DNA of 49,012 nt from an uncultured bacterium. Its GTDB lineage: Bacteria; Verrucomicrobiota; Kiritimatiellia; RFP12; UBA1067. Where the stretch lies: positions 1-49,012 of the forward strand of contig CACWSW010000005.1 in assembly GCA_902763655.1 (NCBI GenBank). The letters are read 5' to 3'. The notes beneath the pieces were generated by a model that worked only from the letters and a program-made list of their open reading frames with translations, did no database searches and was not told the DNA's origin. The position numbers were made by a program, and so were the translations under genes. This document shows positions 1-12,850 of the stretch, one piece after another (the stretch's first letter is position 1; the number at the start of each line of letters is the position of its first letter).

Positions 1-1
1 G

Positions 2-1498
2 GGCATCCTCGCGATGAACGAGGAGGACAGCCGCATCGTGCCGCTCGGCACGGAGGACGGCTGGGACCAGGTGGCGAACCAGCAGACCGCGATCTGCGGT
101 TGCACGTGGCGCATCGTGCCCGTGCCGCGTCCGCCCTGGCGCGACCTCTTCAAGGACGTCTATCCGGCCGAATCGTGGCGCATCGAACCGGTCGCCACGC
201 GCCTCTTCCACGACAAGGCGTTCTTCTACATGCACGACCTCGGTTCCTTCGTCACCAACGAGCGCACGCTCGCGTGGATGTTCGCGATCGGGTACCAGCT
301 CTCCTGGCGCGCGGGCGCGCAAAATTACGTTGCGGACAAGGCGGCGCAGGCCTGGTACGAGTGGCTGCAGCTGCTGCAGGACAAGGTGGTCTCGCGCATC
401 GCCCTGCAGCCGGTGGTCGCGTTCGCGCACGACCGCGCGCCGCTCCTCGCGCTGCCGGGCGACCCGTCGCGGGAGTCGGACGACGGCGTGGTGACGGCAA
501 AGTACGGCGACGTGTCGGTGGCTGTGAACCTCGGCGACGTGCCGCGCACGGTGGCGGGGAAGCGACTTGCGGCGTACGGCTGGTGGATTACCGCGCCCGG
601 CCTCGTGGCGGCGAAACTGGAAGGCGAAACGCCGTATGTGGAGGCCGAGGGGCGCCGCTGGGAGTATCGTCCTGCACCATCCGAGCCGGCGGTGCCGTGT
701 CCGCCCGAGGTCGCCGGCAAGCCGCTCTGCGAGACGACGCCAGCGGGCGCGCGTCTCGCTGTCCTCGACCTCGAAGGCGCGCACGGTTCGTGGGTGAAGG
801 CGTCGGCGGGCGACTGGAAGAACGCGCTCGCCGCATCGCCGCTCGTGACACGGCATGGGCTGAAGGTCGTGTCGCTCCGCGGCGCGGAAGAACTGCGTGC
901 GGCGCTCGCGGCGGGACGCACGGCGTACTTCGCCATCGTCAATCCCTACGGCGAGATTTTCCCTGTGGAGGGTCCTGGACGCTGGACGGAAATGATCGAC
1001 GCCATCCGAGGCTACGTGGCACACGGCGGCATCTGGGTGGAGACGGGCAGCGCATCGTTCTACAGCGCAGCGTGGAACGATGGCGGCAAATGGCGCCGCG
1101 AGGTCATCGGGCTGAAGGGATTGGGGCGCCTGAGGTCCGCGAACGCGATGGCGGACATCGACGAACCTCCAGTCGGGTTGCGCGCGTGCGCGGCGGCGGC
1201 GGCGTGGTTCCCGCCGCAGGTGCTGAAGCAGATTGCCGCCACCAAGTCGCAGGTCAACCGCGCGCCGTGCGACGGCATGGGCGAAACGGTGTTCCCGCTC
1301 GTGGAGGACGGCGAGGGACGTGCCTGGTTCGGTTGCCATCGACTTGGCGGCTGGGGGACGTTATGGCGTCTTGGAGGGTCGAACCCCGACCGCGAACTCG
1401 CGCTTGCGGTCGTTTCCGCCGCGCTCCTCCACCAGTACGAGCACGCACCGCTGCCTCACGCTCCCGCCCCCTACCGCAAGGTCGCCGCAGTCAAGTGA
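2..1498 (+). CDS. 5'-truncated hypothetical protein, probably the C-terminal part of a DUF6259-like carbohydrate-active protein with a GATase/ThuA-like tail
   Basis: Frame is open from base 2 (GGC ATC CTC GCG ATG) with host-like codon usage; stop TGA at 1496-1498. The 'IRGYVAHGGIWV' segment resembles class-I GATase-like domains of CAZymes. Family call is tentative. Confidence 0.55.
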   Translation, partial: GILAMNEEDSRIVPLGTEDGWDQVANQQTAICGCTWRIVPVPRPPWRDLFKDVYPAESWRIEPVATRLFHDKAFFYMHDLGSFVTNERTLAWMFAIGYQLSWRAGAQNYVADKAAQAWYEWLQLLQDKVVSRIALQPVVAFAHDRAPLLALPGDPSRESDDGVVTAKYGDVSVAVNLGDVPRTVAGKRLAAYGWWITAPGLVAAKLEGETPYVEAEGRRWEYRPAPSEPAVPCPPEVAGKPLCETTPAGARLAVLDLEGAHGSWVKASAGDWKNALAASPLVTRHGLKVVSLRGAEELRAALAAGRTAYFAIVNPYGEIFPVEGPGRWTEMIDAIRGYVAHGGIWVETGSASFYSAAWNDGGKWRREVIGLKGLGRLRSANAMADIDEPPVGLRACAAAAAWFPPQVLKQIAATKSQVNRAPCDGMGETVFPLVEDGEGRAWFGCHRLGGWGTLWRLGGSNPDRELALAVVSAALLHQYEHAPLPHAPAPYRKVAAVK

Positions 1499-1511
1499 CC
1501 GTGTGGCCTCC

Positions 1512-1648
1512 CGCCGCAAGGCGCGGCGGAAATGTTTGCGGCGCGCCTCGCGTCACCATCCCGCCGCCGCACGGGAGGGTCGCAACTTGTTGCGACCGCA
1601 TGGAACGCCGCCACTGACTGGGAACGCCGCCATCTTGGCGGCGCATTA
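1512..1648. repeat. REP/BIME-like palindrome cluster
   Basis: 36-bp unit at 1512-1547 recurs at 2951-2986 with 3 mismatches. GGGAG + GGTCGCAAC-TT-GTTGCGACC hairpin at 1573-1597. TGACTGGGAACGCCGCCATCTTGGCGGCGCAT at 1615-1647 recurs at 2594-2626. Confidence 0.75.
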
Positions 1649-1672
1649 TTTTAAAAATCCCGTTTCGCCCTA

Positions 1673-1701
1673 TTGCAAGGGGCCATAAGATTTGATACGA
1701 T
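1673..1701 (+). promoter_or_regulatory. sigma70-type promoter for the DUF3800 unit
   Basis: TTGCAA (1673-1678), 17-bp spacer, TACGAT (1696-1701), with extended -10 TG at 1693-1694. Confidence 0.55.
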
Positions 1702-1705
1702 TAAT

Positions 1706-1798
1706 CCGATCTCCCATTTTGGGTGGGATCATCTGGATGCGGGGGAAAGTCCTCGCGTTGGTGGCGGGAAGCAATTCCCACCACCTTCTCTTTATCGG
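1706..1798 (+). ncRNA. candidate structured RNA 5' of DUF3800 (DUF3800 RNA motif-like)
   Basis: Three consecutive hairpins at 1708-1730, 1737-1758 and 1760-1785 (GGTGG.GGGAA-GCAA-TTCCC.CCACC, GNRA loop), followed by TTCTCTTT. Lies between the promoter and the DUF3800 start. Confidence 0.55.
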
Positions 1799-1801
1799 TG
1801 C

Positions 1802-2491
1802 ATGGCAATGGACACTTTGAGCATATTTGTGGACGAGTCGGGACGCTTTCAGCATCCCGACAACGATTCGCGTTTCTATATTCTGGGAATGGTGTTCCAT
1901 GATCAGGATTCTGACATTTCTGCGCTAGTTGCCGATCTTGAACGTTCAGAATCGGAACTCGGGCTAGAAAACCATTGCTTTCACGCGGGACCTCTCATCA
2001 GAAAAGAAAAAGGCTACGAAATCCTAAGTCGAAGCTTTCGCGGGCGCATACTCTCTCGCATGATGGCGTTCGTCTCGCGCGTCGACTTCAGGTACCATTG
2101 CTTGAGCGTGGATAAGAAGTTCATCGATTCTGCAGCTCAGATCGTAGAACATCTTCGCGCCGCGCTCCTTGCGTTCATTGACTCTCATCGTGATTCGCTT
2201 GCCACTATTGCGCACATCAAGGTCTATTACGATTGTGGTCAATCGCCTGTGACGAATATCCTTCAAAAGACTTTTGTTGATGCGCTAGGCCCTTCTGTCG
2301 AGTTCAAGCAGGGAGTGAGGCCATCTCGTTACCGCCTTTTTCAAGTTGCTGATCTCGTATGTACACTGCATTTGATTGAGTTGCGCCTTGCCTACGGCAT
2401 GCCAATGACACAATCTGAAATTCGATTCTTTGGCGGCCCGCGCGACTTCAAGCGCAACATCCTAAGAAAGATCAAGGGCAAGGAAATATAA
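1802..2491 (+). CDS. DUF3800 domain protein
   Basis: N-terminal IFVDESG and C-terminal FQVAD match the DE and QxxD hallmarks of DUF3800. Start taken at ATG 1802 (or 1808) rather than the TTG at 1673. Confidence 0.85.
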   Translation: MAMDTLSIFVDESGRFQHPDNDSRFYILGMVFHDQDSDISALVADLERSESELGLENHCFHAGPLIRKEKGYEILSRSFRGRILSRMMAFVSRVDFRYHCLSVDKKFIDSAAQIVEHLRAALLAFIDSHRDSLATIAHIKVYYDCGQSPVTNILQKTFVDALGPSVEFKQGVRPSRYRLFQVADLVCTLHLIELRLAYGMPMTQSEIRFFGGPRDFKRNILRKIKGKEI

Positions 2492-2495
2492 TCCT

Positions 2496-2626
2496 GCCGC
2501 CATCTTGGCGGCGCATGGAAAGGCACGGGCCAGTGGCCGGAAATGCCGCCGTCTGGAAGGCGGCTGTCCCAGTCATGGCTGCGCGTAGGGCGTTGACTGG
2601 GAACGCCGCCATCTTGGCGGCGCATG
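2496..2626. repeat. REP-like palindrome cluster downstream of DUF3800
   Basis: GCCGCCATCTTGGCGGC at ~2496-2512 and ~2605-2621. An inverted GGCGGCTGTCCCAGTCA unit at ~2558-2575. Confidence 0.7.
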
Positions 2627-2818
2627 ACCGAGGACATTGCCCAGACCAATTCCGTGCCTCCTAATGAAGGATACCATTTGCGCTGTAACGAGATTACGGT
2701 TCGTATGAAATTGCATGAAGCATCAGACAATCTCATCTGTACCTATCGCGGTTACCCACTTGTCGAATACGAGTAATCCTACCCGCAACGACAATCCCAA
2801 CTACCCATCCCCGACGTT

Positions 2819-2913
2819 CGTTGTGGCTCAAAATTCCCCTCCTTGTACTCGGCTCGTCCTCTTGTTACGGTTCAAAATTCCCCTCGTTGTGGCTCAAAAA
2901 TCCCCCTGTTGTG
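2819..2913. repeat. three ~22-bp imperfect direct repeats (GTTGTGGCTCAAAATTCCCCT)
   Basis: Copies at ~2819-2840, 2864-2884 and 2885-2907. Confidence 0.7.
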
Positions 2914-3056
2914 GGGACTTGGCCAAAAGCGGGAGAGGCCTTCCATATCACGCCGCGAGGCGTGGCGGAAACGTTTGCGGCGCGCCCCGCGCCGCGTATT
3001 GGCGGCGGGCCAATGGCTGGGCAGGCGCTAGGCCGCTTCGCGCTCCAACGCCTTGG

Positions 3057-3193
3057 CCAAGACACCCAGGACACCCAAGACACCCAGGACTACGCCTGCT
3101 TGGTGCGTATGCTCGCAAGCCATTTCCCGGCCACTGGCGCGCAAGCCTACCTTGCCACCGTTCTGGGTGTCTTGGATGTCCTGGGTGTCTTGG
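3057..3193. repeat. 34-bp inverted repeat built from 9-mer tandem units (CCARGACAC)
   Basis: 3057-3090 CCAAGACACCCAGGACACCCAAGACACCCAGGAC is the reverse complement of 3160-3193 with 2 mismatches; 69-bp spacer. Confidence 0.85.
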
Positions 3194-3281
3194 TCTGCCC
3201 ACCAGAAAATGAAATCCTTTGCGGGCGGCTCGCCCACGGAAATCGGCATTCCCTCTCTCGCCAGATAACTTGAAATCCCGT

Positions 3282-3402
3282 TTGCTTTGGGCGGTGGGAA
3301 GGGGTATACTGTTTACACCTTGAGACAAAGATTTTGTTGACGGTCTTGCCTCAGAGCAGACCTAACAACGGAACTTGTAGGAGAATTCTGACTTGATATA
3401 AT
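3282..3402 (+). promoter_or_regulatory. two tandem sigma70-like promoters upstream of the MBL gene
   Basis: TTGCTT(3282)-17-TATACT(3305-3310), and TTGTAG(3375)-16-TGA-TATAAT(3397-3402). Confidence 0.5.
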
Positions 3403-3424
3403 AGTGGATGAAAGGAAGGTTTTT

Positions 3425-4564
3425 ATGTCAAACGAGAACATGCAGTTCCAATTTATAAGAAGTTTTTTACCAGTAGGGCAGGGTGCTTTCTATTGCGAAA
3501 AATTTGACTTCACCGATTCTTCATTATCCATTGTTTATGATTGTGGAACGGTTTCCAGACAGAGTAGCATAAGGAATGTGATTGAAGAGACTTTCAAGAA
3601 GGGTGAGTCTGTAGATGCGCTATTCATATCGCACTTCCATGAGGATCATGTAAATGGAATACCTTTCTTGTTAGAACGTTGTAAGGTAAAACGTATATTC
3701 TTTCCAGCCGTGTCACCGCTGTACAAGATTATTTTGAAATTTGTGAATGATAAAATTCTTAAGGTACAGAAGTTTACTCTTGACCTTTCTGTGGATGCCG
3801 TTGCAACACTTATTAAAGTTATAAAAGATGTTAACATTATAAGAGACGATAAGCAGGAAACCTTGTTGTACATGGTCAGGGAGACCGGCTTCGATAACGA
3901 AACAATGACCGACATCCCTTCATTAGACAACATTATACTAATAAGATCTGGAGTAAATGTGTTAGACCAACTCATGGGAAAAGATTCACTTTTGTTAAAG
4001 TGGGGATGGCAGTTCGTTCCTTTTAATTTTAGGCAAAGAGAATTAATAATAAAACTTGAAGCAGAAATGAGAAGCCGATATGGGGAATGCTTCAGATGGG
4101 ATATGCTTGAAGACGATTTTCGCGATAAGGCGAAACGGCAAGAAATAAAGAACCTGTTTAGGGTCAAGTTAGGTGATCCTAACGTGAACTCAATGGTTCT
4201 GTATTCAGGCCCAAAGAATCCAGCTATACAAATTGGAGGCAACCAGAATGACAAACGAGCGACCGGATGCTTGTACACAGGGGATTACAATGCGAATATG
4301 GGTAATAGTTGGAAACAACTCAAAGGCGCATATGGTGGCCTTTGGAATATGGTAGGGTACATTCAAATTCCACATCATGGCTCAAAACACAGTTTTAATC
4401 GCGGAATGCTAGATGCTGGAGTTGAGTATGTAATATCTGCTGGCGAAAACAACAAATACAGGCATCCACATCGTGAAGTAATACGTTGGTTTGATGCCAA
4501 GGGGAACCTACATAGGGTTAGCGAATTGCCGAAAAGTCGTTATGACGTTACGCTTGGTCTTTAA
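3425..4564 (+). CDS. MBL-fold metallo-hydrolase, ComEC/Rec2-like (candidate nuclease)
   Basis: Motifs PVGQG, YDCG, SHFHEDH (HxHxDH), YTGD, IPHHGS, ISAG..YRHPH. No ComEC membrane domain. Markedly AT-rich. SD AAAGGAAGG precedes ATG 3425. Confidence 0.85.
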   Translation: MSNENMQFQFIRSFLPVGQGAFYCEKFDFTDSSLSIVYDCGTVSRQSSIRNVIEETFKKGESVDALFISHFHEDHVNGIPFLLERCKVKRIFFPAVSPLYKIILKFVNDKILKVQKFTLDLSVDAVATLIKVIKDVNIIRDDKQETLLYMVRETGFDNETMTDIPSLDNIILIRSGVNVLDQLMGKDSLLLKWGWQFVPFNFRQRELIIKLEAEMRSRYGECFRWDMLEDDFRDKAKRQEIKNLFRVKLGDPNVNSMVLYSGPKNPAIQIGGNQNDKRATGCLYTGDYNANMGNSWKQLKGAYGGLWNMVGYIQIPHHGSKHSFNRGMLDAGVEYVISAGENNKYRHPHREVIRWFDAKGNLHRVSELPKSRYDVTLGL

Positions 4565-4681
4565 TAAAAGATGGCACCATCAATTCGTCAGATATATGTT
4601 ATACTTGTTGCGTTCCAACGGTACTTCGTGGTACTTGATCGGCAGAGTAGTAAGTTTGAAGGATTAGGAAAGTGATTTAAA

Positions 4682-7600
4682 ATGGCAAATCAATTGACAG
4701 AGAAGGAATTGGCCTACTTCAAGGCTTTGACGGAAAAGCGGACTAGAAAGGCAGATCTTATTGATGAAGATCCAGGCCTTCGCAATATTATTGCGCAGAC
4801 TATTGACATGTATTCTGATCAAGCGCATTTTGTTTATGAATTAATCCAGAATGCTGACGATGCAGGAGCGACTGAGGCTGAATTTGCTGTCAGGGAAGAT
4901 AGATTAGTTTTTTCCCATAACGGAGCTCGGCGTTTTTCTATCTCAAATCCTGACACAGAAACTGACGATTTGCGAATCGCTAGGTTTGGTGATATAAACG
5001 CCATTACTGGTTCTGTTACAACAAAGAGTACAGACAATAAAGAGGGTAATGCGATAGGCAAATATGGAATGGGGTTCCTCTCTGTCTTCAATTACACGGC
5101 AACTCCAGAGATATACGATCCACATGTTGCTTTTAAGATAGAGCGGAAGATGATCCCTACATTACTAGACGACGACTATCCCGGACGTAAACCTGAAGAG
5201 ACGGTATTTGTTTTTCCCTTTGCCAGTAAAGGGGATGTGCGTCCTGCATTTGAATCTTTGGCGCGACTTACTTCGCTAATCTTTCCGACGCTATTTCTAA
5301 ATAACCTTCAAACTATTATATTCAATGGAGGATCAGAAGTCGGCGAGTATCGGAAGCGGATTCTGGAAGCGAGAGAGTTTGGTGATTCGGTTAACATAAC
5401 GAGCTGCAAGCGTATAGAGTACATGCAGGCGAATAGAAGTGAAACGACAACAACGCAAATATTCCTCTTTTCACGGAAGGACAAGGCGAATCATCGCTAT
5501 GCTATTGGCTTTATGCTTGATGAGAACGGACATCTGATTCCTGCGAATCACAAGGCATTCTGTTTCTTCCCAACTAAGTATGAAACAAAGCTCAAGTTTC
5601 TTATACACGCGCCATTTTTGTTGAATCCTAATCGTGAGGGAATAAAAGATGAAGATCCTCACAATATAGACATGTTCGACAAACTGGCTGATTTGATGTA
5701 CGATAGCCTGTTGTACATGCGTGATATGCGAACATCGGCAGGGGAACGATTGATTGACGATAGTATATTGAACATCATACCAATTGGTGGAGATCAAGAC
5801 GATCCATATGTTTTTCGAGTCTGTTGCGACAGGGCATTGAAGTGCTTTCAGACCGAGCGGATATTACCGACGATTGATGGTTATGCGGTGAAAGAAAATG
5901 CCTATTGGCCGAAAACTCAGGAGATTACTAGCGTATTCCCTGATGTAACCTTCCAAGAACTGTACAATGCGCCAGACAGGCATTGGGTGTTTTGCGGCAA
6001 ATGGAATGCACCGGGTCTTGATTTCGCCCTTAGAGATTTCGTGTCGGCATGTACGGTTGAATGCCCATCTGATGTGTCAATCTTGGATCGGATATCATCG
6101 TCATTTATCAAGAAACAAAAACTGCCATGGTTGTCGGCTTTTTACAAGTGGATTGATGGAAGTGACGACCGTCGTAAAAGAGCGATGGAACTTCCGATTT
6201 TTCTTGATCATAAAGGTGAGGCGGTTGCGGCGTTTAATTCAAATGGCGAGCATATCCTATTTTTACCGGCAGTAGGATCTGATGCTTTTACAACAATACA
6301 TGAGGATATCTGCCAAGATGAATATGCAATGGGACTGATTGCTCGCTGGAAGGTAGAGACTCCTTCGGAGGATGATCGTATTGGCGTCATCATAGATAAG
6401 ATTTCATCCTGCGAAAGGGAGGCTTCCGATGCTTTATTCAAGGAGATTGTTGAGTATTATGCTAGATGCCCACAAGAAAAGAAGGAAAATTTGACTAAGA
6501 AGCTGCAAGGGAAGGTCAAGCTAAGAGGGAAAGGTCTACGAAATAATGAAATTGTATATCTCTCGTCTTCAGAACTTTACTGGCCATCGGATTCAACGAA
6601 GGAATATTTTAGGGCTATTATGGAGTTTAATGGAGCGTTTGAAAATGTATTTGTCGTTGACCTCGCACATTATCATGAATTGATAGAGCAAGCTCTTCGG
6701 AGGGATTTTGACAGATTGCTGTCAAAAATTGGTGTAATGCCCGAACCATCCATTCGGAGTGGAGAAAGAACAGGAAGATGGGAAGAACTGGAGAATTTGT
6801 TGGCCCTGGACAAAGTGAAACTTGCAGAACCATCAAAAAGCAATAGGGAGAAACAAATATTTAGATACCAATATATTCATGGCGCATCTGAATTTCTTGA
6901 GCGGTTACTTGCGGAAAAGAATATGGAAGACAAAAGAGTTTTTTCTAGAATCCTTTGGAGCATTTTGAAGTCTCACGCCGACAAATATTTTCGAGAACTA
7001 ATAAAGAATAAAACAATTTCATTAGAGAGCTTCCTGAAGGTTCATAGTTGTTTCTGGAAAGGGGGTTATGGTCCAAATTTCTTAGGTGGGGTACATGAAT
7101 ATTTTAACCGAGAAATCCAACGCGAAGAATTTGATAGCCCACAATTGTTTGAATTCAGAGGTGCCAAGTGGATCGTTCTTAATGACTCTACCTGTGTATC
7201 ACCTGATAGCATCTCTGTCGATAGGCTTCCAGAAGAGTATGTGAGGCGTGATGATTCAGATCCGTTATTGAAGATGCTTGGGATCAAACCAGCCGAAGCA
7301 CCGACACCAATTCGCGCGTCGGAGAATGCGGTTGCGATTGCAATGGTAGAAGCTGAAGCAAGGGAAGGTCTTTCGGAGAATCAGAAACATACCATGAAGC
7401 TGGGTGAGGAGGCTGAAAGACGAGGATTGACGATTGAAGACTTGGATGAGTGCGTGCGGATTATGGCACAACTTAAACAACAGCGTCGAGAGAAAGTAGA
7501 GCAGTCATTAGGGCGCATTCATTATGTTGGCAAAGTCGAAGATGGCCTGAAAGAGGTTAGTGTGTCGCCAAATGAATTGTCCTCTATAGAGCATCCGCAT

Positions 7601-9772
7601 ACAGTAGATGTAGCCACCAGTTCAAGTGGTATATGTCATGACGGAAGTAATATTCAAGGTAGAGAACAGGGCCGGCCTGATGAAAGTAGCGTTGTCGGGC
7701 GGATTGAGGGCAGGGTGCGTAACTACAAGGAGTCTTTTAAAAGGAGTAGTGTTCCGCCTCCGTTGCCGAGTCTTGATGATGACGAAGGTGAGGATGATGA
7801 CGAACTAACGCCGAAAGCCATTGACTTCGCAAAGCGCATCAAGAACCGCGAGGATCAACAAGCGAGAGAAATAGCGACTTTGGAAAAGGGGGAGGAGCTA
7901 CAGCGGGAGGCCTGCGAGGCTGAAAGATATAGCCTTGGATGGTTCAAGGTCATGCTCGAACTCGAGATGCTGGGTAAGGAGAAGGAGGCTTCTTCGCAAA
8001 GAGAGGTGTCGATCTGCTTCACAAAAATTGAACGCGAGCCGAATACGGAACGTACGTTTATCTTAAAACGGCCATCACGGAATATTCCTCAATGGCTTGA
8101 GGATGTTTCGGACATCCCGCTTGATATGGTTGTCGCGGGGAAGTCGATCCGCCCGATGATTGAGGTCATGAATGTGCAGTCCTTCAATCTGCGAGTAAAA
8201 CTTAAGGCCGATTCTAAGCTTGAGGGTGTTGATCTGCAAAAGCTCGACGAAGCGCGGGTGGTGACACAGCGCCCATTATTCTTGATGGAGGAACTGAAGA
8301 GGGGGCTGGCGTATCTTCCGCTGCCCGATGAGATGAATCTTCGTACGGCTCTGACGAACAATATCGAGTTCGTGTTCGGGCCGCCTGGAACGGGGAAAAC
8401 GACGTTCCTCGCCGAGAAGCGAATCATGCCGATGATGCGCGAAGCACGAGACTGGCGGGTTCTTGTTCTCGCGCCGACTAACAAGGCGGCGGATGTGCTG
8501 ACTAGTCGAATCATATCCAAAATGGAGGGGGACATTTCTTATCGCAAATGGCTGATACGATTTGGATCAACGCTTGACGAGCATTTGGACGCAACGGGTG
8601 TGTGTGTCGGGAAAGAGGTTGATCTAAGAAAGTATCCAAGGCATGTGGTGATTACAACGATAGCGCGATTCCCATACGACAGCTGTATCACCGGCAATTC
8701 TGCACCACAGAGACTTGTTGACTATGAGTGGGATTGTATCGTTGTCGACGAGGCCTCGATGATTCCTCTTGCAAATATCATCTATCCCCTTTATGCGAAG
8801 AAGAACGCGCGGTTTATTATTGCAGGAGACCCCTTTCAGATAGAACCGATTATCTCTTGCGAAGATTGGAAGGATGAGAATATCTACAAGATGGTAGGAC
8901 TGAAGAATTTTGCCGCCCCAAAGACGGAACCGCACGACTACCATGTTGAGAGGCTGACTACACAATACCGAAGCATCCCGTCCATCGGAACGATCTTTAG
9001 CCGATATCGTTATGGTGGAATACTTGCTCATGCCCGTTCGGAAAGCTCGCGTCGCCCGCTTGAGATTGAGGGGTTTCCTGAAATTAGGTCGCTTACGGTA
9101 CTGAAGTTCCCAGTCCGTTCATACGAAAGCTTTTATCGCCCGAAGCGTTTGGGGATAAACGGCGGTTCTTCCTATCAGATTTACTCGGCACTTTTTGCGT
9201 ATGAGTTTGTGATAGCTCTCGCACGAAAGATGAAACCTCAGACTGACAAGTTTCGGATTGGTGTGATTTCTCCTTACAGGGCTCAGGCAGACCTTGTACA
9301 ACGGCTTGTAGAGCGAGCCAAATTCCCTGGTTATGTTGAAATCTTGGCTGGAACGGTCCATGGGTTTCAGGGCGATGAATGTGAGATGATAGTAACACTC
9401 TTCAATCCGCCCCCTGGGATTTCCGCCAACAAGGGATCGTTCATCAACAAGAAGAACATTATCAATGTGGCTGTGAGCCGTGCGCGTGATTATCTTGTCA
9501 TTTTGATGCCTGATGATGATACCTATAATCTTGAGAATATGGTTGAAGTGCGTAAGGTCGAGGCGCTAATGAATCAAGACGCGGGACATTGTATCGTCCA
9601 TAGGACGAATGAGCTAGAAGAATGCATGTTTGGGAATCCCAATTTCATTGATGAGAATTCGTTTTCAACCGGACATCAGTCTGTGAACGTGTACGGTGCA
9701 CCCGAAAAGCGATATGAAGTGCGCGCAGATGAGACGGCTGTCGATATCCAGATTCACGAGGATACGCATTAA
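4682..9772 (+). CDS. sacsin/NO VEIN-type GHKL ATPase fused to an Upf1/DNA2-like SF1 helicase
   Basis: N-terminal ELIQNADDAGA, HNG, IGKYGMGFLSVF, FCFFPT and FLIHAPFLLNPNRE are sacsin-type HATPase/S5 motifs. C-terminal FGPPGTGKTT, LAPTNKAAD, VDEAS, AGDPFQ, QYRS, ISPYRAQ, GTVHGFQGDE and NVAVSRAR are SF1 helicase motifs. Confidence 0.85.
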   Translation: MANQLTEKELAYFKALTEKRTRKADLIDEDPGLRNIIAQTIDMYSDQAHFVYELIQNADDAGATEAEFAVREDRLVFSHNGARRFSISNPDTETDDLRIARFGDINAITGSVTTKSTDNKEGNAIGKYGMGFLSVFNYTATPEIYDPHVAFKIERKMIPTLLDDDYPGRKPEETVFVFPFASKGDVRPAFESLARLTSLIFPTLFLNNLQTIIFNGGSEVGEYRKRILEAREFGDSVNITSCKRIEYMQANRSETTTTQIFLFSRKDKANHRYAIGFMLDENGHLIPANHKAFCFFPTKYETKLKFLIHAPFLLNPNREGIKDEDPHNIDMFDKLADLMYDSLLYMRDMRTSAGERLIDDSILNIIPIGGDQDDPYVFRVCCDRALKCFQTERILPTIDGYAVKENAYWPKTQEITSVFPDVTFQELYNAPDRHWVFCGKWNAPGLDFALRDFVSACTVECPSDVSILDRISSSFIKKQKLPWLSAFYKWIDGSDDRRKRAMELPIFLDHKGEAVAAFNSNGEHILFLPAVGSDAFTTIHEDICQDEYAMGLIARWKVETPSEDDRIGVIIDKISSCEREASDALFKEIVEYYARCPQEKKENLTKKLQGKVKLRGKGLRNNEIVYLSSSELYWPSDSTKEYFRAIMEFNGAFENVFVVDLAHYHELIEQALRRDFDRLLSKIGVMPEPSIRSGERTGRWEELENLLALDKVKLAEPSKSNREKQIFRYQYIHGASEFLERLLAEKNMEDKRVFSRILWSILKSHADKYFRELIKNKTISLESFLKVHSCFWKGGYGPNFLGGVHEYFNREIQREEFDSPQLFEFRGAKWIVLNDSTCVSPDSISVDRLPEEYVRRDDSDPLLKMLGIKPAEAPTPIRASENAVAIAMVEAEAREGLSENQKHTMKLGEEAERRGLTIEDLDECVRIMAQLKQQRREKVEQSLGRIHYVGKVEDGLKEVSVSPNELSSIEHPHTVDVATSSSGICHDGSNIQGREQGRPDESSVVGRIEGRVRNYKESFKRSSVPPPLPSLDDDEGEDDDELTPKAIDFAKRIKNREDQQAREIATLEKGEELQREACEAERYSLGWFKVMLELEMLGKEKEASSQREVSICFTKIEREPNTERTFILKRPSRNIPQWLEDVSDIPLDMVVAGKSIRPMIEVMNVQSFNLRVKLKADSKLEGVDLQKLDEARVVTQRPLFLMEELKRGLAYLPLPDEMNLRTALTNNIEFVFGPPGTGKTTFLAEKRIMPMMREARDWRVLVLAPTNKAADVLTSRIISKMEGDISYRKWLIRFGSTLDEHLDATGVCVGKEVDLRKYPRHVVITTIARFPYDSCITGNSAPQRLVDYEWDCIVVDEASMIPLANIIYPLYAKKNARFIIAGDPFQIEPIISCEDWKDENIYKMVGLKNFAAPKTEPHDYHVERLTTQYRSIPSIGTIFSRYRYGGILAHARSESSRRPLEIEGFPEIRSLTVLKFPVRSYESFYRPKRLGINGGSSYQIYSALFAYEFVIALARKMKPQTDKFRIGVISPYRAQADLVQRLVERAKFPGYVEILAGTVHGFQGDECEMIVTLFNPPPGISANKGSFINKKNIINVAVSRARDYLVILMPDDDTYNLENMVEVRKVEALMNQDAGHCIVHRTNELEECMFGNPNFIDENSFSTGHQSVNVYGAPEKRYEVRADETAVDIQIHEDTH

Positions 9773-9795
9773 CGAACAATAAAAGTACGCGTACG

Positions 9796-10032
9796 CGGGC
9801 GACGGAGGCGACGAACGACTTCCGTATCGTGTCCATCGAGATGGTGGATGGCAAGCCGAAGGTGGAGTGGGAGCCGAAGACGAACCGCTGGACGGGGGCG
9901 GAGATACGTGCCGTGCTGAAGGGGGCGGAGAGGCTGGAGGGGCCGTGGGCGGATGTGCCGGAAGATGGCGGCTCGCCGGGGACGGCTCGCCCCACCATGC
10001 GGTTCTTCAAGGTGGTTGTAGAGTTGCCGTAG
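9796..10032 (+). pseudogene. orphan 3' fragment of a surface-protein gene (...NDFRIVSIEMVDGKPKVEWEP...RFFKVVVELP*)
   Basis: Abrupt return to high GC after the helicase stop; no proper start or SD. Resembles C-terminal tails I recall from Kiritimatiellae surface proteins (not verified). Confidence 0.5.
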
Positions 10033-10255
10033 CGGCGCGCGCGGGGCGCGCGCCCTACCAGAGCCGCCAAGATGACGGCTGTCGCAGTCAATTGCGGACG
10101 CGCGGGAGCGCGTCCCTCCCGTTGCTGTTTTGGACGCAATAAATTGCGGCCTTCCCAATGCGGTTACGCGGGGATGTTCCGCATTTCGGGGCATTCCCCG
10201 TTGCAGGGCGAATCGGATTGTGGTGTTATACCAACCGTCGGCAAAAACAGGAGAA

Positions 10256-10765
10256 ATGCCGACGAATGGTAAAATGCTCTATTCATTCGCAGAGTGCAGG
10301 AAACGATTCGGGTCGCCTTATCAGATAGACAAGGCGGTCGCGGCTGGTAGTCTCTGGAAACTCGAGTGGCGGCATCCGAACGCCGTCATGACGTTCGACA
10401 GCGCGTACTTCTACCATGACCTCACGGACATGGTGCCGGAGTTCTACTACATGGCGACAGCCCACGGAGCAAGACCGATTCGTGATCCGCTGGTGAAGCA
10501 GTTCTATATGCCAAGCGGGACTGAAGGGGTCGGCGTGACGACGATTGACTACTGCGGCGACAGGGTGAGGACTTTCGACCTCGAACGGCTTCTGATCGAG
10601 ACCGCGAGAATGAAGGGAAAGCTTGCACCAGACCTGTACAAGGAGGTTGTGCTTTCCTTTCGGCGGAAGTCGTCCAAGCTGGAGGCGTACAAGATAACCG
10701 ATTATCTCGCCCACTTCGCACGGCGCGACGCAATTGAGTCGATAATCTACGAGGAGGTGTTCTGA
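10256..10765 (+). CDS. AbiEi-like type IV toxin-antitoxin antitoxin/transcriptional regulator
   Basis: SAYFYHDLTDMVP and RTFDLERLLIE resemble the AbiEi SAL..HGLTD..P and TD.ERT..D motifs. SD CAGGAG. TGATG overlap with the next ORF. Confidence 0.65.
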   Translation: MPTNGKMLYSFAECRKRFGSPYQIDKAVAAGSLWKLEWRHPNAVMTFDSAYFYHDLTDMVPEFYYMATAHGARPIRDPLVKQFYMPSGTEGVGVTTIDYCGDRVRTFDLERLLIETARMKGKLAPDLYKEVVLSFRRKSSKLEAYKITDYLAHFARRDAIESIIYEEVF

Positions 10766-10944
10766 TGAAGTCGTTCGCCGAGCAGCTGGCCGACCTGGCC
10801 AAGGCCGGGTATCGCGTGGCCGAAGCACAGGCAAAGGTTGCGCACGACGCGATTTTGCTTGCCATGTACGTTGAGTCTTGTGGCGGCTCGCCCCACCATG
10901 CGGTTCTTCAAGGTGGTGGTGGAGTTGCCGTAGCGGCGCGTTGA
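10765..10944 (+). pseudogene. truncated AbiEii-like nucleotidyltransferase toxin (N-terminal ~35 codons, then reads into the repeat)
   Basis: Translationally coupled ATG at 10765 with GAGGAGG SD. MKSFAEQLADLAKAGYRVAEAQAKVAHDAILLAMY runs into the direct repeat and stops at 10944 (59 aa). Confidence 0.5.
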
Positions 10945-10989
10945 GGACAACGCGCCCTACCAGAGCCGCCAAGATGGCGGCTGTCCCAG

Positions 10990-12850
10990 TCAATTGCGGA
11001 CGTCCTTCCGGACGAGTTCGTGCGGGGCGAGGACGAGGACGGCCGTCTTGTCCGTGCCGTAGACGCGGTAGACGACGCGCTGTTCGCGGTCCGTCAGGTT
11101 CGCGGCCAGCAAGACGACCTTGCCGTCCGCCGTGCGCCACCAGTTGCCGCGCACGTCTGCCATCGTGGCGAACTTGCTCGGCGGCAGCTTGTAGGCGGGA
11201 TCGTAGAGGCTGTGGTGGGGGCGGCGGCCGAGCCATTCGTACGTCGTCTTGCCGACGGGTTCCGCGAAGCGCAGCTCGTCGAGCAGGTTGCCGTAGGCGA
11301 GCGCGTCGAGGTTCTTCTGGCGGAAGGCGCAGAGCTGGTTGAGGATCGCGCACTTGTCGGGCTTGTCGAGGAGGGTCGTTGTTCTCCGGGCTGCAGAAGT
11401 AGGTGGTGTAGCCGGAGTAGACGGCGTTGTGGAAGGGGATGTCCTTCGGGTCGCGCACGACCACCTGCAGGTAGCCGTCCACCATGTTGAGGCACATCTC
11501 GCCCGAACCTTCGGTGGTGATGAACGCGCCCTTGGCGTTCCACGCGCGGTGGATGGGCTCCATCATCTTCTCGTAGCCCTCGCGCCACCACTTGCCGCCG
11601 CCGAGCGGATGGCCGTGTGCGGGATCGTAGCAGGGGATGCCGGGCGCCGCGCCGATCTGGTCGATGAAGATCGACTTCGCCCCCAGTTCGTCGAGGATGC
11701 GTCCGGTGAAGGTCCGCACCACCTTCTGCCACGGCGCGCACGTGGGGCACATCACGGCGAGCGGCGCGGTGAGGCGTCCGTACTTCTCCACGTAGCGCGT
11801 GTCGTTCTGTCGTAGGACGGCGTAGGGTTCGGCGAGGATGAAGCCGCTCGTGGGGGCCGACCAGAGGCGTCCGTTCACGTAGGGCATCGGTTCCTGTCCC
11901 ATCGACTCGCAGTACGCGATGCATTCCTTCGTGCCGGGCTGTGCGGGGAAGTACTCGGGGTAGTTCACGTCGTGGCCCGAATGCTGCCAGAGATGCCAGT
12001 GGAGGCCGGTGGTGAAATTCGGGAAGATCGCCTTGGCGCGCGTGAGGACGTTGGACGCCACGTCGGGGTAGCCGTGGATGTTGATCCAGAGCGGGATCTC
12101 GCAGAGGCGGCGGGGATAGTCGGGGATGTCCTTGATGGGACCGCGCGCGGCCCATTTCTGCTGGAGCGCGTAGGCGCGGTAGCGCCGTGCGAAACTCCAC
12201 CAGTCGCCCTTGAGCGGCGCGAGCACCACGGGGTAGCGCGGGCCCTCGGCGGCCTTTCCGGGCACGCCGGCGTTTTCGACCGTCGTCTCGTAGCAGGCGT
12301 TCTGCTCGCCTTCAACGAGGAGGTTCTTGATGCGGGCCTCGGGGTCTTCGGGGACGAAGTAGAGTCCGTCCGTGCCGAGGAAGAACCCGGCAATCATCGG
12401 GCAGTAGCCGAGGTAGGCACGGCGGAAGGGCTTCGGCTGGGCCACGCGTTTCCTGAAGAGCTGCGCGCCATGGTCGTTCGATGGCAGCAGCACGTCGCCC
12501 GCGCCGTCGGGCGTCACGCGGTTGAGGCGCGGGAAAGCCGTCGTCATGAGCGTCCAGCGCGGCGAGCGGTTCGCGAACGCGAGTCGCCACGCCTGGGAGG
12601 TTCGCTCGCACGTTGCGGCCTCGTGCGCGCACGCCTTCACGCGCTTCGTGCGGTTCGTGCCGTCGGAGAACTCTGCCGTCCAAAGGTCGCCGCCGCCCGT
12701 CGCGAACGTGGCCGCGCCCACCGTGATCGACTGCAGCACGTTCTTTCCGTCGAACGTGACCGTCATCCGGTTCTGTCCGTCTGCCACGGCTGTCGCGAGC
12801 GCCGTGCAGGCGAGCGTTGTGAGGATTGCTTTCCATGTAGGTCGTTTCAT
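10990..12850 (-). pseudogene. frameshifted DUF6259-like secreted protein
   Basis: Signal peptide MKRPTWKAILTTLACTALATAVA from ATG 12850. Similar to the 19771..22350 paralogue (DYxPxYP and DQIG/DQVVG regions). Sensible reading breaks after YFCSPENND (~11374) and resumes in another frame (LLDKPDKCAILNQLCAFRQKNLDALAYG...LAPHELVRKDVRN*), stop at 10990-10992. Confidence 0.7.

Follow-up and report, generated by a model that had tools for sequence, protein, structure and literature searches.

A Tiamat-like ATPase-helicase fusion and a stand-alone ComEC-type metallo-hydrolase in one variable slot of an uncultured Kiritimatiellia bacterium

Tiamat and its described relatives

In the original phage-challenge work, Tiamat (TmtA) is said to be a single-gene anti-phage system. 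Tiamat is treated as an antiphage protein by Yuan et al. (October 2026 preprint, bioRxiv 10.64898/2026.09.30.754977), and that preprint names an ATPase-helicase architecture 'Type III-B Tiamat-like': a bacterial protein of more than 900 aa with the Hsp90/sacsin-type ATPase and the middle region of Tiamat, an Upf1-like SF1 helicase replacing the C-terminal PD-(D/E)xK nuclease, and helicases, methyltransferases or nucleases often adjoining. Its abstract gives biochemistry for the B. cereus Tiamat only, and its section on Type III-B is purely descriptive. The 49,012-nucleotide stretch of DNA analysed here (the window) encodes such a protein, of 1696 aa (4682-9772, + strand), downstream of a gene for a stand-alone ComEC-type MBL-fold hydrolase (3425-4564, + strand). 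The two co-oriented genes reported in a preliminary description are real: both ORFs (3404/3425-4564 and 4682-9772) are open on the + strand. The description had also taken the architecture for a candidate undescribed system, which no longer holds, because it is catalogued as Type III-B in that preprint. The fusion has no DUF3883/NOV_C PD-(D/E)xK nuclease and carries a helicase at residues 1036-1696 instead; by the strict definition it is not a Tiamat.

The ATPase-helicase fusion and its family

About 780 N-terminal residues of the fusion align with TmtA profiles, with identical GHKL motifs. The best match (PADLOC PDLC03972, 3.7e-34) relates residues 41-781 to profile positions 35-767 of 1302, and ten TmtA models are among the 25 PADLOC matches listed. 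This Tiamat-homologous half (4802-7024, + strand) comprises the sacsin/Hsp90-type GHKL ATPase, recognised by Pfam SACS (residues 35-145, 4.4e-11) and NCBIfam P_loop_sacsin (60.1 bits vs a cut-off of 50), and the middle region. The ATPase residues E53, N57, D60, H79-N-G81 and G126-K-x-G-x-G131 lie in invariant columns. These matches bear out the sacsin-type ATPase that had been proposed, and the kinship with Tiamat for the N-terminal half only. Residues 782-1035 (7025-7786, + strand) are the least conserved stretch, mostly 'x' in the family consensus, and presumably form a flexible linker; an acidic run, DDDEGEDDDE, stands directly after them, in line with the acidic part of the linker claimed earlier.

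The helicase module (residues 1036-1696; 7787-9769, + strand) is predicted by a structural model (m4b52aa4a56ee, pLDDT 82.3) to contain two stalk helices (about 1049-1104) and a beta-barrel (about 1109-1195). RecA1/RecA2 carry a Walker A motif, GPPGTGKTT, at 8378-8404; the motifs DEASM, GDPFQIEP, TQYRS, TVHGFQGDE and NVAVSRAR are present, Pfam AAA_11/AAA_12 match residues 1220-1608, and a C-terminal tail of four strands (about 1660-1693) is invariant across the family. Foldseek aligned the model over about 650-680 columns (E to 9.2e-24) with the eukaryotic Upf1, IGHMBP2, Sen1 and DNA2, which share the SF1B core with stalk and barrel; PDB sequence matches and invariant columns support the same module. 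The helicase is thus complete and Upf1-like, as first described, and occupies the site of Tiamat's DUF3883 nuclease. Across 28 aligned sequences, neither enzyme shows any variation in its catalytic residues. Mokosh MkoA and MkoC have the same type of core with stalk and barrel (PADLOC MkoA, 2e-33 over residues 1349-1607), but no PLD nuclease is fused to or adjoins the fusion, and its N-terminal half is unrelated to MkoA.

Relatives of the fusion number 1319 proteins at E<=0.001, and the SACS and SF1-helicase Pfam domains occur together in 118 of the 120 best. The family occupies at least 580 loci in a one-genome-per-species collection (600 stretches were scanned, of which 580 contain a relative), and the loci listed belong to Bacillota, Bacteroidota, Planctomycetota, Verrucomicrobiota, Acidobacteriota, spirochaetes and Pseudomonadota, plus one archaeon, Methanimicrococcus. 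The archaeal member is full-length, whereas the preprint calls the helicase swap bacteria-only. Among 300 further genomes from the phylum to which the window belongs, not one has a full-length copy; in a same-genus genome, a fusion of 50% identity stands without an MBL. When only co-directional ORFs that are 130 aa or longer and no more than 350 bp from the fusion were counted as neighbours, the 41 upstream ORFs at 73 assessable loci included 12 PDC-S68, 7 type III REase and 2 AbiO/Nhi-like proteins and one each of IIG, RTasRmuC, RTasDUF1848, DrmMI and mad3, and the 32 downstream ORFs included 5 NERD+UvrD/AbiO/Nhi-like, 4 pAgo and 2 PDC-S68 proteins. The commonest neighbour, PDC-S68 (a RecD-like PADLOC candidate of about 1200 aa, E down to 0), is missing from the window, and a full-text literature search found no paper naming it. 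Typical neighbours are thus RecD-like PDC-S68, type III restriction enzymes, pAgo and NERD/Schlafen-type helicases. In the nearest clade of the tree (six relatives: L101, L074 and L103-L106), YhcG PD-(D/E)xK nuclease, DUF1848 and Res-like helicases stand instead of the MBL. The fusion gene occurs sporadically, has moved horizontally and keeps company with defence genes of the restriction, pAgo and helicase kinds.

The metallo-hydrolase gene and the variable slot

The MBL ORF is open from 3404 (386 aa) or from ATG 3425 (379 aa) to 4564; the database cluster of the protein likewise starts at ATG 3425 and has 379 aa. Upstream of this ATG lie AGGAAGG (3413-3419) and TGATATAAT (3394-3402), which on inspection are possible expression signals of the gene (3394-3419, + strand). 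The protein matches Pfam Lactamase_B (9.3e-08) and, among PDB profiles, ComEC (1.6e-05), RNase Z and RNase J. Its metal-binding motifs are intact (H77-x-H79-x-D81-H82, D294, H324-H325 and H354, all in invariant alignment columns). The model (pLDDT 83.0) has as its top solved structure 9ic4, the ComEC beta-lactamase-like domain (E 2.3e-10, target-normalised TM-score 0.66); the C-terminal metal-binding region aligns with that of ComEC/Rec2, and HxHxDH and PHHGS motifs are present. The protein differs from ComEC/Rec2 in being soluble and stand-alone, without the competence channel, and its model has added helical inserts (about 105-150 and 212-255). The Cys-rich insert of most of its relatives is missing. 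A Pfam scan of the 386 aa found no competence or membrane domain, which agrees with the earlier reading of a ComEC-type MBL without membrane part. The gene's own family, distinct from that of the fusion, consists of solo ComEC-type metallo-hydrolases with a sporadic distribution; the gene product is probably a nuclease or phosphodiesterase. The MBLs of Avs1a, MBL-type LmuA, DRT-associated RTasMBL, PDC-M48B and 6A-MBL are of similar size and weakly resemble it in the N-terminal MBL motifs (PADLOC 1.7e-14 to 6.4e-05). However, the protein scores 32 bits against the NCBIfam cut-off of 420 for Avs1a and 18.9 bits against 220 for 6A-MBL, and partner genes of none of these systems adjoin it.

As had been remarked, both genes are AT-rich in a high-GC chromosome: GC is 40% in the MBL gene (0.396, GC3 0.395) and 46% in the fusion gene (0.455, GC3 0.454), against 0.691 (GC3 0.853) in the upstream host gene and 0.647 in the window beyond 12 kb (host about 65%). 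The 117-bp spacer between them (4565-4681, + strand) contains no detectable terminator-like hairpin, and AGGAAAG precedes ATG 4682. The sequence TGTTATACT at 4597-4605, described previously as a separate extended -10 before the helicase gene, is present, but a consensus scan of the region found no excess of promoter-like sites (8 vs 11.6 +/- 3.0 in shuffles); co-transcription and a separate promoter are both possible.

Together the two genes make up the contents of a single variable slot flanked by repeats (3238-9807). Its left border is a non-coding element of about 640 bp (2594-3237) with a 34-nt inverted repeat (3057-3090 / 3160-3193). Other contigs of this genome and contigs of same-genus genomes carry copies of the element at 82-89% identity, and it has no match in Rfam. 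The right border is a repeat block (9808-10164) that is multi-copy in the genus and 91% identical to its counterpart at the syntenic place of the same-genus genome G319 (contig C110), where the whole slot is replaced and a BspA-type LRR protein is found. Two flanking features are context only. A DUF3800 gene (1673-2491, + strand; Pfam 5.9e-09, no PADLOC match) lies in a separate slot. A decayed AbiE pair (10253-10944, + strand) consists of an AbiEi-like ORF (10253-10765) resembling the solved AbiEi 6y8q (3.5e-07) and an AbiEii stub of 59 codons cut by a repeat. The AbiEi-like ORF lacks 18 residues of the same-genus copy, when set against the intact pair on L193, and gave no Pfam or NCBIfam match when scanned as 10130-10765. 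The proposed DUF3800/AbiE defence island stands insofar as the region is foreign and variable and contains remnants of DUF3800 and AbiE, but it is not purely defensive, given the LRR protein of G319. The MBL and fusion genes are autonomous elsewhere; here a low-GC donor probably supplied them together.

Partnership of the two genes and proposed function

The two genes had been put forward as a two-gene system, which comparison with their families contradicts. A tblastn search over 80 fusion loci located the MBL in none of them, and an MBL-family profile HMM (E<=1; positive control, the window's own gene, 7.9e-126) matched none of 88 fusion loci totalling 1.61 Mb, those of the 6 nearest relatives among them. 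These 88 loci include near-duplicates (L105/L106 are identical in the tree alignment, L029/L032 nearly so) and in most of them the protein shares 35-50% identity with that of the window; the set does not extend to closer relatives on ENA/Logan contigs. Conversely, the fusion occurs in 0 of 56 MBL-family loci on viral contigs. In five fusion-bearing genomes, ComEC-like MBL matches are only partial, and a Lachnospirales MBL (G370) stands alone, with 35.5% GC against a background of roughly 50%. The MBL is therefore not a conserved, usual or obligate partner, and the caveat that the genes are independent cassettes comes closer to the evidence, as both families occur alone, although here they form one exchange unit. 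'MBL' and 'lactamase' have 0 occurrences in the main text of the preprint.

Since the genes were probably acquired together, an optional local role is conceivable, although we regard it as unlikely: the helicase would unwind or feed a strand that the ComEC-type MBL degrades, replacing Tiamat's cis PD-(D/E)xK nuclease. Consistent with this are their shared unit between conserved repeats, the terminator-free spacer, the best matches of the MBL within its nuclease-type branch (ComEC, RNase Z/J, CPSF73), and the matching GC3 of the MBL gene and the fusion N-half (0.397). Upstream neighbours of relatives are also often nucleic-acid enzymes (a PD-(D/E)xK nuclease at L101, a RecD-DEDDh exonuclease fusion at L002, Res endonucleases), and Yuan et al. 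suggest that nuclease-less Tiamat-like proteins are perhaps served by neighbouring nucleases. The two genes also adjoin each other in a variant of roughly 95% identity that was sampled in another study (X3 contig 4156-5027), the sole case seen beyond the window's assembly; it is not independent, because it is near-identical DNA of the same population. The absence of either gene from the other's loci, the nearest relatives included, and the occurrence of each family alone argue against such a system. Still less probable is that the MBL alone is a phage-derived counter-defence or moron gene carried by chance, for example an Apyc1-like phosphodiesterase acting against cyclic-nucleotide immune signals. 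The 56 family loci on contigs classed as viral, the Pfam family Anti-Pycsar_Apyc1, carried by 15-33% of the proteins in the nearest Atlas clusters, and the Apyc1 structure 7u2r among the fold matches (E 5.2e-05, rank 34) would fit this; the ComEC nuclease-type domain is nevertheless clearly the better match by fold and profile, the C-terminal PHHGS/HPH motifs align with ComEC, the Pfam Apyc1 family is found at E<=0.01 neither in the MBL nor in its relatives (0/4), and no phage genes were found around it in the window.

We favour, with moderate confidence, a single-protein Tiamat-like defence or conflict module, with the MBL separate and both genes probably acquired together. If Tiamat and other GHKL clamps are a guide, the retained sacsin/Hsp90-type ATPase might dimerise on ATP and gate a middle region that binds clients; once a phage nucleic acid or protein is sensed, the Upf1-like SF1B helicase that stands in place of the nuclease would be released and might translocate 5'->3' on foreign ssDNA or RNA. 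Replication or expression would be blocked, or the strand handed to a cellular or neighbouring nuclease. Against this reading count the local signs, given above, that the two genes form one unit, the loss of the Tiamat nuclease, which leaves the effector step unexplained (a gap that a neighbouring nuclease would fill), and the non-defence neighbourhoods that bioRxiv 10.64898/2026.09.30.754977 gives for about 14% of 'Tiamat-like' proteins. Alternatively, the fusion may serve nucleic-acid housekeeping for a mobile element or the cell (integrative-element replication or repair, RNA surveillance) and hitch-hike in variable regions. We consider this rather improbable, even though its helicase resembles the RNA/DNA quality-control helicases named above, its commonest neighbour is a RecD-type helicase known too from replication and conjugation contexts, and a non-defence LRR protein takes the equivalent slot in G319. 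The N-terminal half is homologous to Tiamat, an antiphage protein according to the preprint, neighbours include type III R-M, pAgo, a type IIG enzyme and DISARM/MADS components, and integrase, relaxase or replication initiator are not recurrent among the neighbour families listed.

To conclude, the single-protein reading places the fusion in a widespread, recently catalogued candidate anti-phage family, within Type III-B by the architecture described in the preprint. The homology of one half to Tiamat and the gene neighbourhood suggest that a role in defence is the most likely one for this family.

Domain architecture of the fusion and its kinship with Tiamat

Our results confirm the MBL hydrolase gene and the fusion gene beside it as first described and partly support their first interpretation: the fusion is a new member of a recently catalogued Tiamat-like family of candidate defence proteins, and the pair is not a new two-gene system. 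Judged by its sequence, the fusion (4682-9772, + strand) possesses two intact and conserved NTPase engines and an N-terminal half homologous to Tiamat (TmtA), a single-gene anti-phage protein. Residues 35-145 match the Pfam SACS family (E 4.4e-11), and the NCBIfam model P_loop_sacsin gives 60.1 bits, above its cut-off of 50. The GHKL residues E53, N57, D60, H79, G81 and G126-K-x-G-x-G131 are invariant in 28 homologues, as are the core residues of the Walker A (GPPGTGKTT) and of the helicase motifs (DEASM, GDPFQIEP, TQYRS, TVHGFQGDE and NVAVSRAR). Pfam AAA_11/AAA_12, which are SF1 families, cover residues 1220-1608, and sequence matches in the PDB include Upf1 and IGHMBP2. The model of residues 1036-1696 (pLDDT 82.3, 33-sequence alignment) predicts a pair of stalk helices, a beta-barrel, both RecA domains and a tail of four strands, and its best solved matches by Foldseek are Upf1, IGHMBP2, Sen1/SETX, DNA2 and ZNFX1, with E values down to 9.2e-24. 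Thus, both enzymatic modules named in the preliminary description, a sacsin-type GHKL ATPase and a C-terminal Upf1-like SF1 helicase, are confirmed. The last 40 residues are nearly invariant across homologues, and residues 782-1035 show the lowest conservation in the protein.

The fusion shares with Tiamat the N-terminal Hsp90/sacsin-type GHKL ATPase. The PADLOC alignment of residues 41-781 to positions 35-767 of the 1302-position TmtA profile (3.7e-34) runs to residue 781; nine more TmtA models also match. By the strict definition, the middle region of Tiamat is DUF3684 (transducer, TPR-like folds and Fold B), and Pfam DUF3684 gave no match in the fusion at E<=0.01. Tiamat ends in a PD-(D/E)xK nuclease (DUF3883/NOV_C), whereas the fusion has the Upf1-like helicase in its place: Pfam matched no DUF3883/NOV_C-type PD-(D/E)xK domain in the fusion, and its C-terminal 661 residues are modelled as Upf1-like helicase. 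The helicase core also matches MkoA and MkoC in PADLOC. Mokosh, however, combines a helicase and a nuclease of the PLD family (separate as MkoB, or part of a fusion as in MkoC) and has only the helicase core in common with the fusion, Pfam finding no PLD domain in P0001 (the MBL hydrolase), P0002 or P0003. No PADLOC model spanning the entire fusion was found.

This architecture had been proposed as undescribed, which no longer holds, since the accessible part of a preprint of 1 October 2026 catalogues it as Type III-B (Yuan et al., bioRxiv 10.64898/2026.09.30.754977). There, Tiamat is presented as an ATPase and ssDNase, Tiamat-like proteins are reported often to have their nuclease swapped for an Upf1-like (SF1) helicase, and the resulting Type III-B is defined by high Tiamat-HMM similarity, an ATPase, no PD-(D/E)xK and a length of at least 900 aa. 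The fusion shows each of these features (TmtA-model match, ATPase, no PD-(D/E)xK, 1696 aa), together with the Upf1-like SF1 helicase replacing the nuclease. The same part of the preprint names helicases, methyltransferases and nucleases as frequent neighbours of Tiamat-like genes and predicts that the Tiamat C-terminus dimerises; in its main text, as far as available, the terms "lactamase" and "MBL" have 0 occurrences. In the literature searched, this partly accessible source alone describes the architecture. The word "helicase" occurs 0 times in the NO VEIN preprint, and the accessible part of a 2013 HEPN paper deals with eukaryotic sacsin only.

The MBL hydrolase and its association with the fusion

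The MBL hydrolase gene (3425-4564, + strand) is co-oriented with the fusion gene. Its start is likely ATG 3425, because AGGAAGG and TGATATAAT stand just 5' of this codon and the database cluster has 379 residues. GC3 is 0.395 in the MBL gene and 0.397 in the N-terminal half of the fusion, against 0.853 in the upstream host gene, and the ORFs and these figures bear out the initial picture of two co-oriented low-GC genes in a high-GC host. The 117-bp spacer between the two genes does contain TGTTATACT, as first noted, but in a scan of the region promoter and terminator consensus sites were no more numerous than in shuffles. No terminator-like hairpin was found in the spacer.

Pfam recognises in the MBL hydrolase an N-terminal MBL motif only, with Lactamase_B families only. 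In the PDB, a profile of 29 relatives matches RNase Z, RNase J, CPSF73 and the MBL domain of ComEC, and the model (pLDDT 83.0) has its nearest match in the beta-lactamase-like domain of ComEC (9ic4, E 2.3e-10). Residues H77, D81, H82, D294, H324, H325 and H354 are invariant in the family alignment, and the Cys-rich insert of most relatives is missing. The HxHxDH motif and the C-terminal His cluster of the MBL domain are common to ComEC/Rec2 and P0001; ComEC/Rec2, however, is a membrane competence channel, and P0001 (386 aa) is without the channel domain. NCBIfam ComEC_Rec2 scores 39 bits (cut-off 190), over model positions 603-650 only. In consistency with the Pfam, NCBIfam and fold matches, the protein is a ComEC-type MBL without membrane domain, as initially proposed. 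No membership of a named MBL defence system emerged, as matches to Avs1, MBL-type Lamassu, DRT with MBL, PDC-M48 and 6A-MBL are partial and far below family thresholds, and the partner genes of these systems are not adjacent, the neighbours being the fusion, repeats, DUF3800 and AbiE remnants. For P0001 and 4 relatives, our own Pfam scans at E<=0.01 did not recover the precomputed annotation Anti-Pycsar_Apyc1, and PHROGs gave only partial or unnamed families for the MBL and its viral-contig neighbours. The likeliest activity of the MBL is that of a nuclease or phosphodiesterase, in a role of its own.

The proposal that MBL and fusion form a two-gene system did not survive comparison with other loci. 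Among 88 fusion loci (80 genome and 8 metagenome, 1.61 Mb), tblastn detected the MBL in 0/80 genome loci and gave no credible match in the 8 metagenome ones, and an MBL-family profile HMM matched none of the 88 at E<=1, the window's own gene serving as positive control (7.9e-126). Conversely, the fusion was present in 0/56 MBL-family loci on viral contigs, and a full-length MBL-family gene in 0/5 fusion-bearing genomes. These five genomes contain partial matches only, two of which fall in ORFs of ~770-790 aa, a size that we infer to fit ComEC. In a tree of 83 full-length members, the window fusion shares a branch with L101 and L074 (support 99), which L103-L106 join next (support 100), and the MBL is absent from all six of these nearest relatives. 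Their neighbours include a YhcG PD-(D/E)xK nuclease 1.3 kb upstream, DUF1848 accompanied by NERD and SF1-helicase genes, and helicases of the Res-like and NERD/UvrD-like kinds. The contigs of the closest relatives of the fusion and of the MBL did not coincide in length, in a weak comparison of the best 120 of each. A full-length MBL-family member is found in 1/301 Lachnospirales genomes, where it forms a lone islet of ~1.2 kb (L197, 8832-10010; 35.5% GC in a region of ~50% GC); this lone low-GC gene shows that members of the MBL family can move singly. Given this solo copy and that neither family's loci hold the other, MBL and fusion each exist and move alone.

Organisation of the low-GC island

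The low-GC island of ~9.5 kb (~1.5-11 kb), within host sequence of ~65% GC, consists of three variable slots arranged as a mosaic, one with DUF3800, one with MBL and fusion and one with the AbiE remnant, and is divided by multi-copy repeats (1509-1646, 2485-2625, 2594-3237, 9808-10164 and 10884-11002). One of these repeats, a non-coding element of ~640 bp, occurs on several contigs of the same genome and of same-genus genomes. Slots were compared by a genus-level DNA search, genomes at family level being too divergent for an empty site. In a contig of a same-genus genome (G319:C110), both the flanking DNA (window 1-1650 and 10936-11374) and the borders 2594-3237 and 9808-10164 are kept at 89-96% identity, and window 3238-9807, exactly MBL and fusion, is replaced by 3.7 kb with a BspA-type LRR protein. 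Because this segment is replaced as a whole, MBL and fusion constitute one exchange unit here. In another contig of the same genome (G319:C9), slot cargo is an intact AbiE pair and carbohydrate-related proteins. No integrase was seen at the island, and Rfam at a relaxed threshold gave 0 matches in window 1-12000.

A contig from another study's sample (X3) covers window 4156-5027 with 47 differences and bridges MBL and fusion; it is DNA of the same population and so not independent support. In a further run (X8), the fusion is covered and the MBL is not, a gap in contig coverage that does not count as a finding. Joints that would remove the entire island, such as 1598->10132, were rejected as repeat artefacts because their sides are only 22-27 letters long and lie inside repeats.

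The DUF3800 and AbiE genes originally cited as fitting a defence island are both present, but the AbiE pair is decayed (10253-10944, compared with same-genus L193 2505-4048): the AbiEi-like ORF is without 18 residues found in the same-genus copy, and AbiEii, of 269 aa in G319, is cut by a repeat to 59 codons. Relatives and other samples contain 79 further letters at 11372-11375, and the minus-strand DUF6259 gene shifts frame near this point, with an ORF reading on to 10283; with these letters missing and the frame changed, the window's copy is probably disrupted or mis-assembled. At the other side, window 1-1498 encodes the C-terminal 494 residues of a protein of ~1220-1290 aa in same-family genomes, the contig beginning inside the gene.

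Neighbours of the fusion family and possible roles

The fusion family is large and phylogenetically broad, and it is probably commoner in prokaryotes than canonical Tiamat. The search gave 1319 matches, 118 of the best 120 carry both domain sets, and at least 580 of 600 scanned stretches from a one-genome-per-species collection encode a relative. Its distribution is sporadic, of the defence-island type; 0/300 other genomes of the window's own phylum contain a full-length copy. A complete Methanimicrococcus genome encodes a full-length member (L042, 10001-14767; query residues 12-1695).

The 73 loci whose upstream side could be assessed yielded 41 co-directional ORFs there, of which Pfam identified ResIII in 13 (7 with RE_endonuc) and RecD-like helicases in 12. 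PADLOC assigned 12 of the 41 to PDC-S68, 7 to type III REase, 2 to AbiO/Nhi-like, and one each to IIG, RTasRmuC, RTasDUF1848, DrmMI and mad3. The 32 downstream ORFs comprise 5 NERD+UvrD/AbiO/Nhi-like, 4 pAgo, 2 PDC-S68 and 1 type III methyltransferase. PDC-S68, a RecD-like protein of ~1200 aa (E down to 0), is an immediate neighbour of the fusion in numerous lineages that are not related, upstream in L002, L009, L011, L022, L023, L043, L046, L048, L055, L057, L058 and L062 and downstream in L010 and L039; the L002 copy carries a fused DEDDh exonuclease. In the tree of 83 full-length members, built by FastTree from their last 900 residues, the adjacency is scattered over 16/83 rows and requires 11 changes, of which supported branches force at least 9, versus a mean of 14.9 in shuffles (3/500 as low), with some rows without flanks and near-duplicates included. 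PDC-S68 and fusion could form a genuine variant of the family with two genes; our literature search found no paper naming PDC-S68. In the same genus, a 50%-identical fusion (L194, 1353-7523) follows a NERD-domain protein, an SF1 helicase, a 568-aa protein and DUF1848, all co-directional in one low-GC block, which may be a multi-gene arrangement. The recurrence of PDC-S68 across the tree and the existence of an archaeal member extend and correct the preprint, whose accessible part calls the helicase swap unique to bacteria (Yuan et al., bioRxiv 10.64898/2026.09.30.754977).

As to mechanism, the fusion might act as an ATP-gated GHKL dimer whose middle region would sense a foreign molecule; sensing would then license a Upf1-type translocase to move 5'->3' along phage ssDNA or RNA, and nucleases of the cell or of neighbouring genes would carry out degradation. 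Dimerisation through the invariant C-terminal tail may occur, by analogy with the prediction for the Tiamat C-terminus. That the MBL optionally serves as the nuclease of the fusion seems to us improbable. Equally doubtful is a wider possibility, that Type III-B helicases are hubs for interchangeable adjacent enzymes and that, in this rumen lineage, the MBL was newly recruited as a trans-acting DNase. The partners would then be RecD-like helicase-exonucleases (PDC-S68), Res endonucleases, DUF1848, PD-(D/E)xK nucleases and, in the present case, a ComEC-type MBL, which would bring back the nuclease activity that disappeared as the helicase took the place of Tiamat's PD-(D/E)xK domain; if so, MBL and fusion would be a previously unseen two-gene Tiamat variant. 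The complex prediction for MBL 8-386 with the helicase module 1077-1696 (score 0.01) is evidence neither way.

With the fusion read as a Type III-B member, the window adds little beyond one more example, its single unusual feature being the MBL neighbour, which offers a cheap test case for the idea of a nuclease in trans. Both enzymatic halves of the family are strictly conserved, and its antiviral role is a candidate one. A working example would show the control of an Upf1-type helicase by a GHKL clamp in immunity, a question that ties to eukaryotic relatives, NO VEIN and sacsin on the one side and Upf1, ZNFX1 and Schlafen-type helicases on the other.
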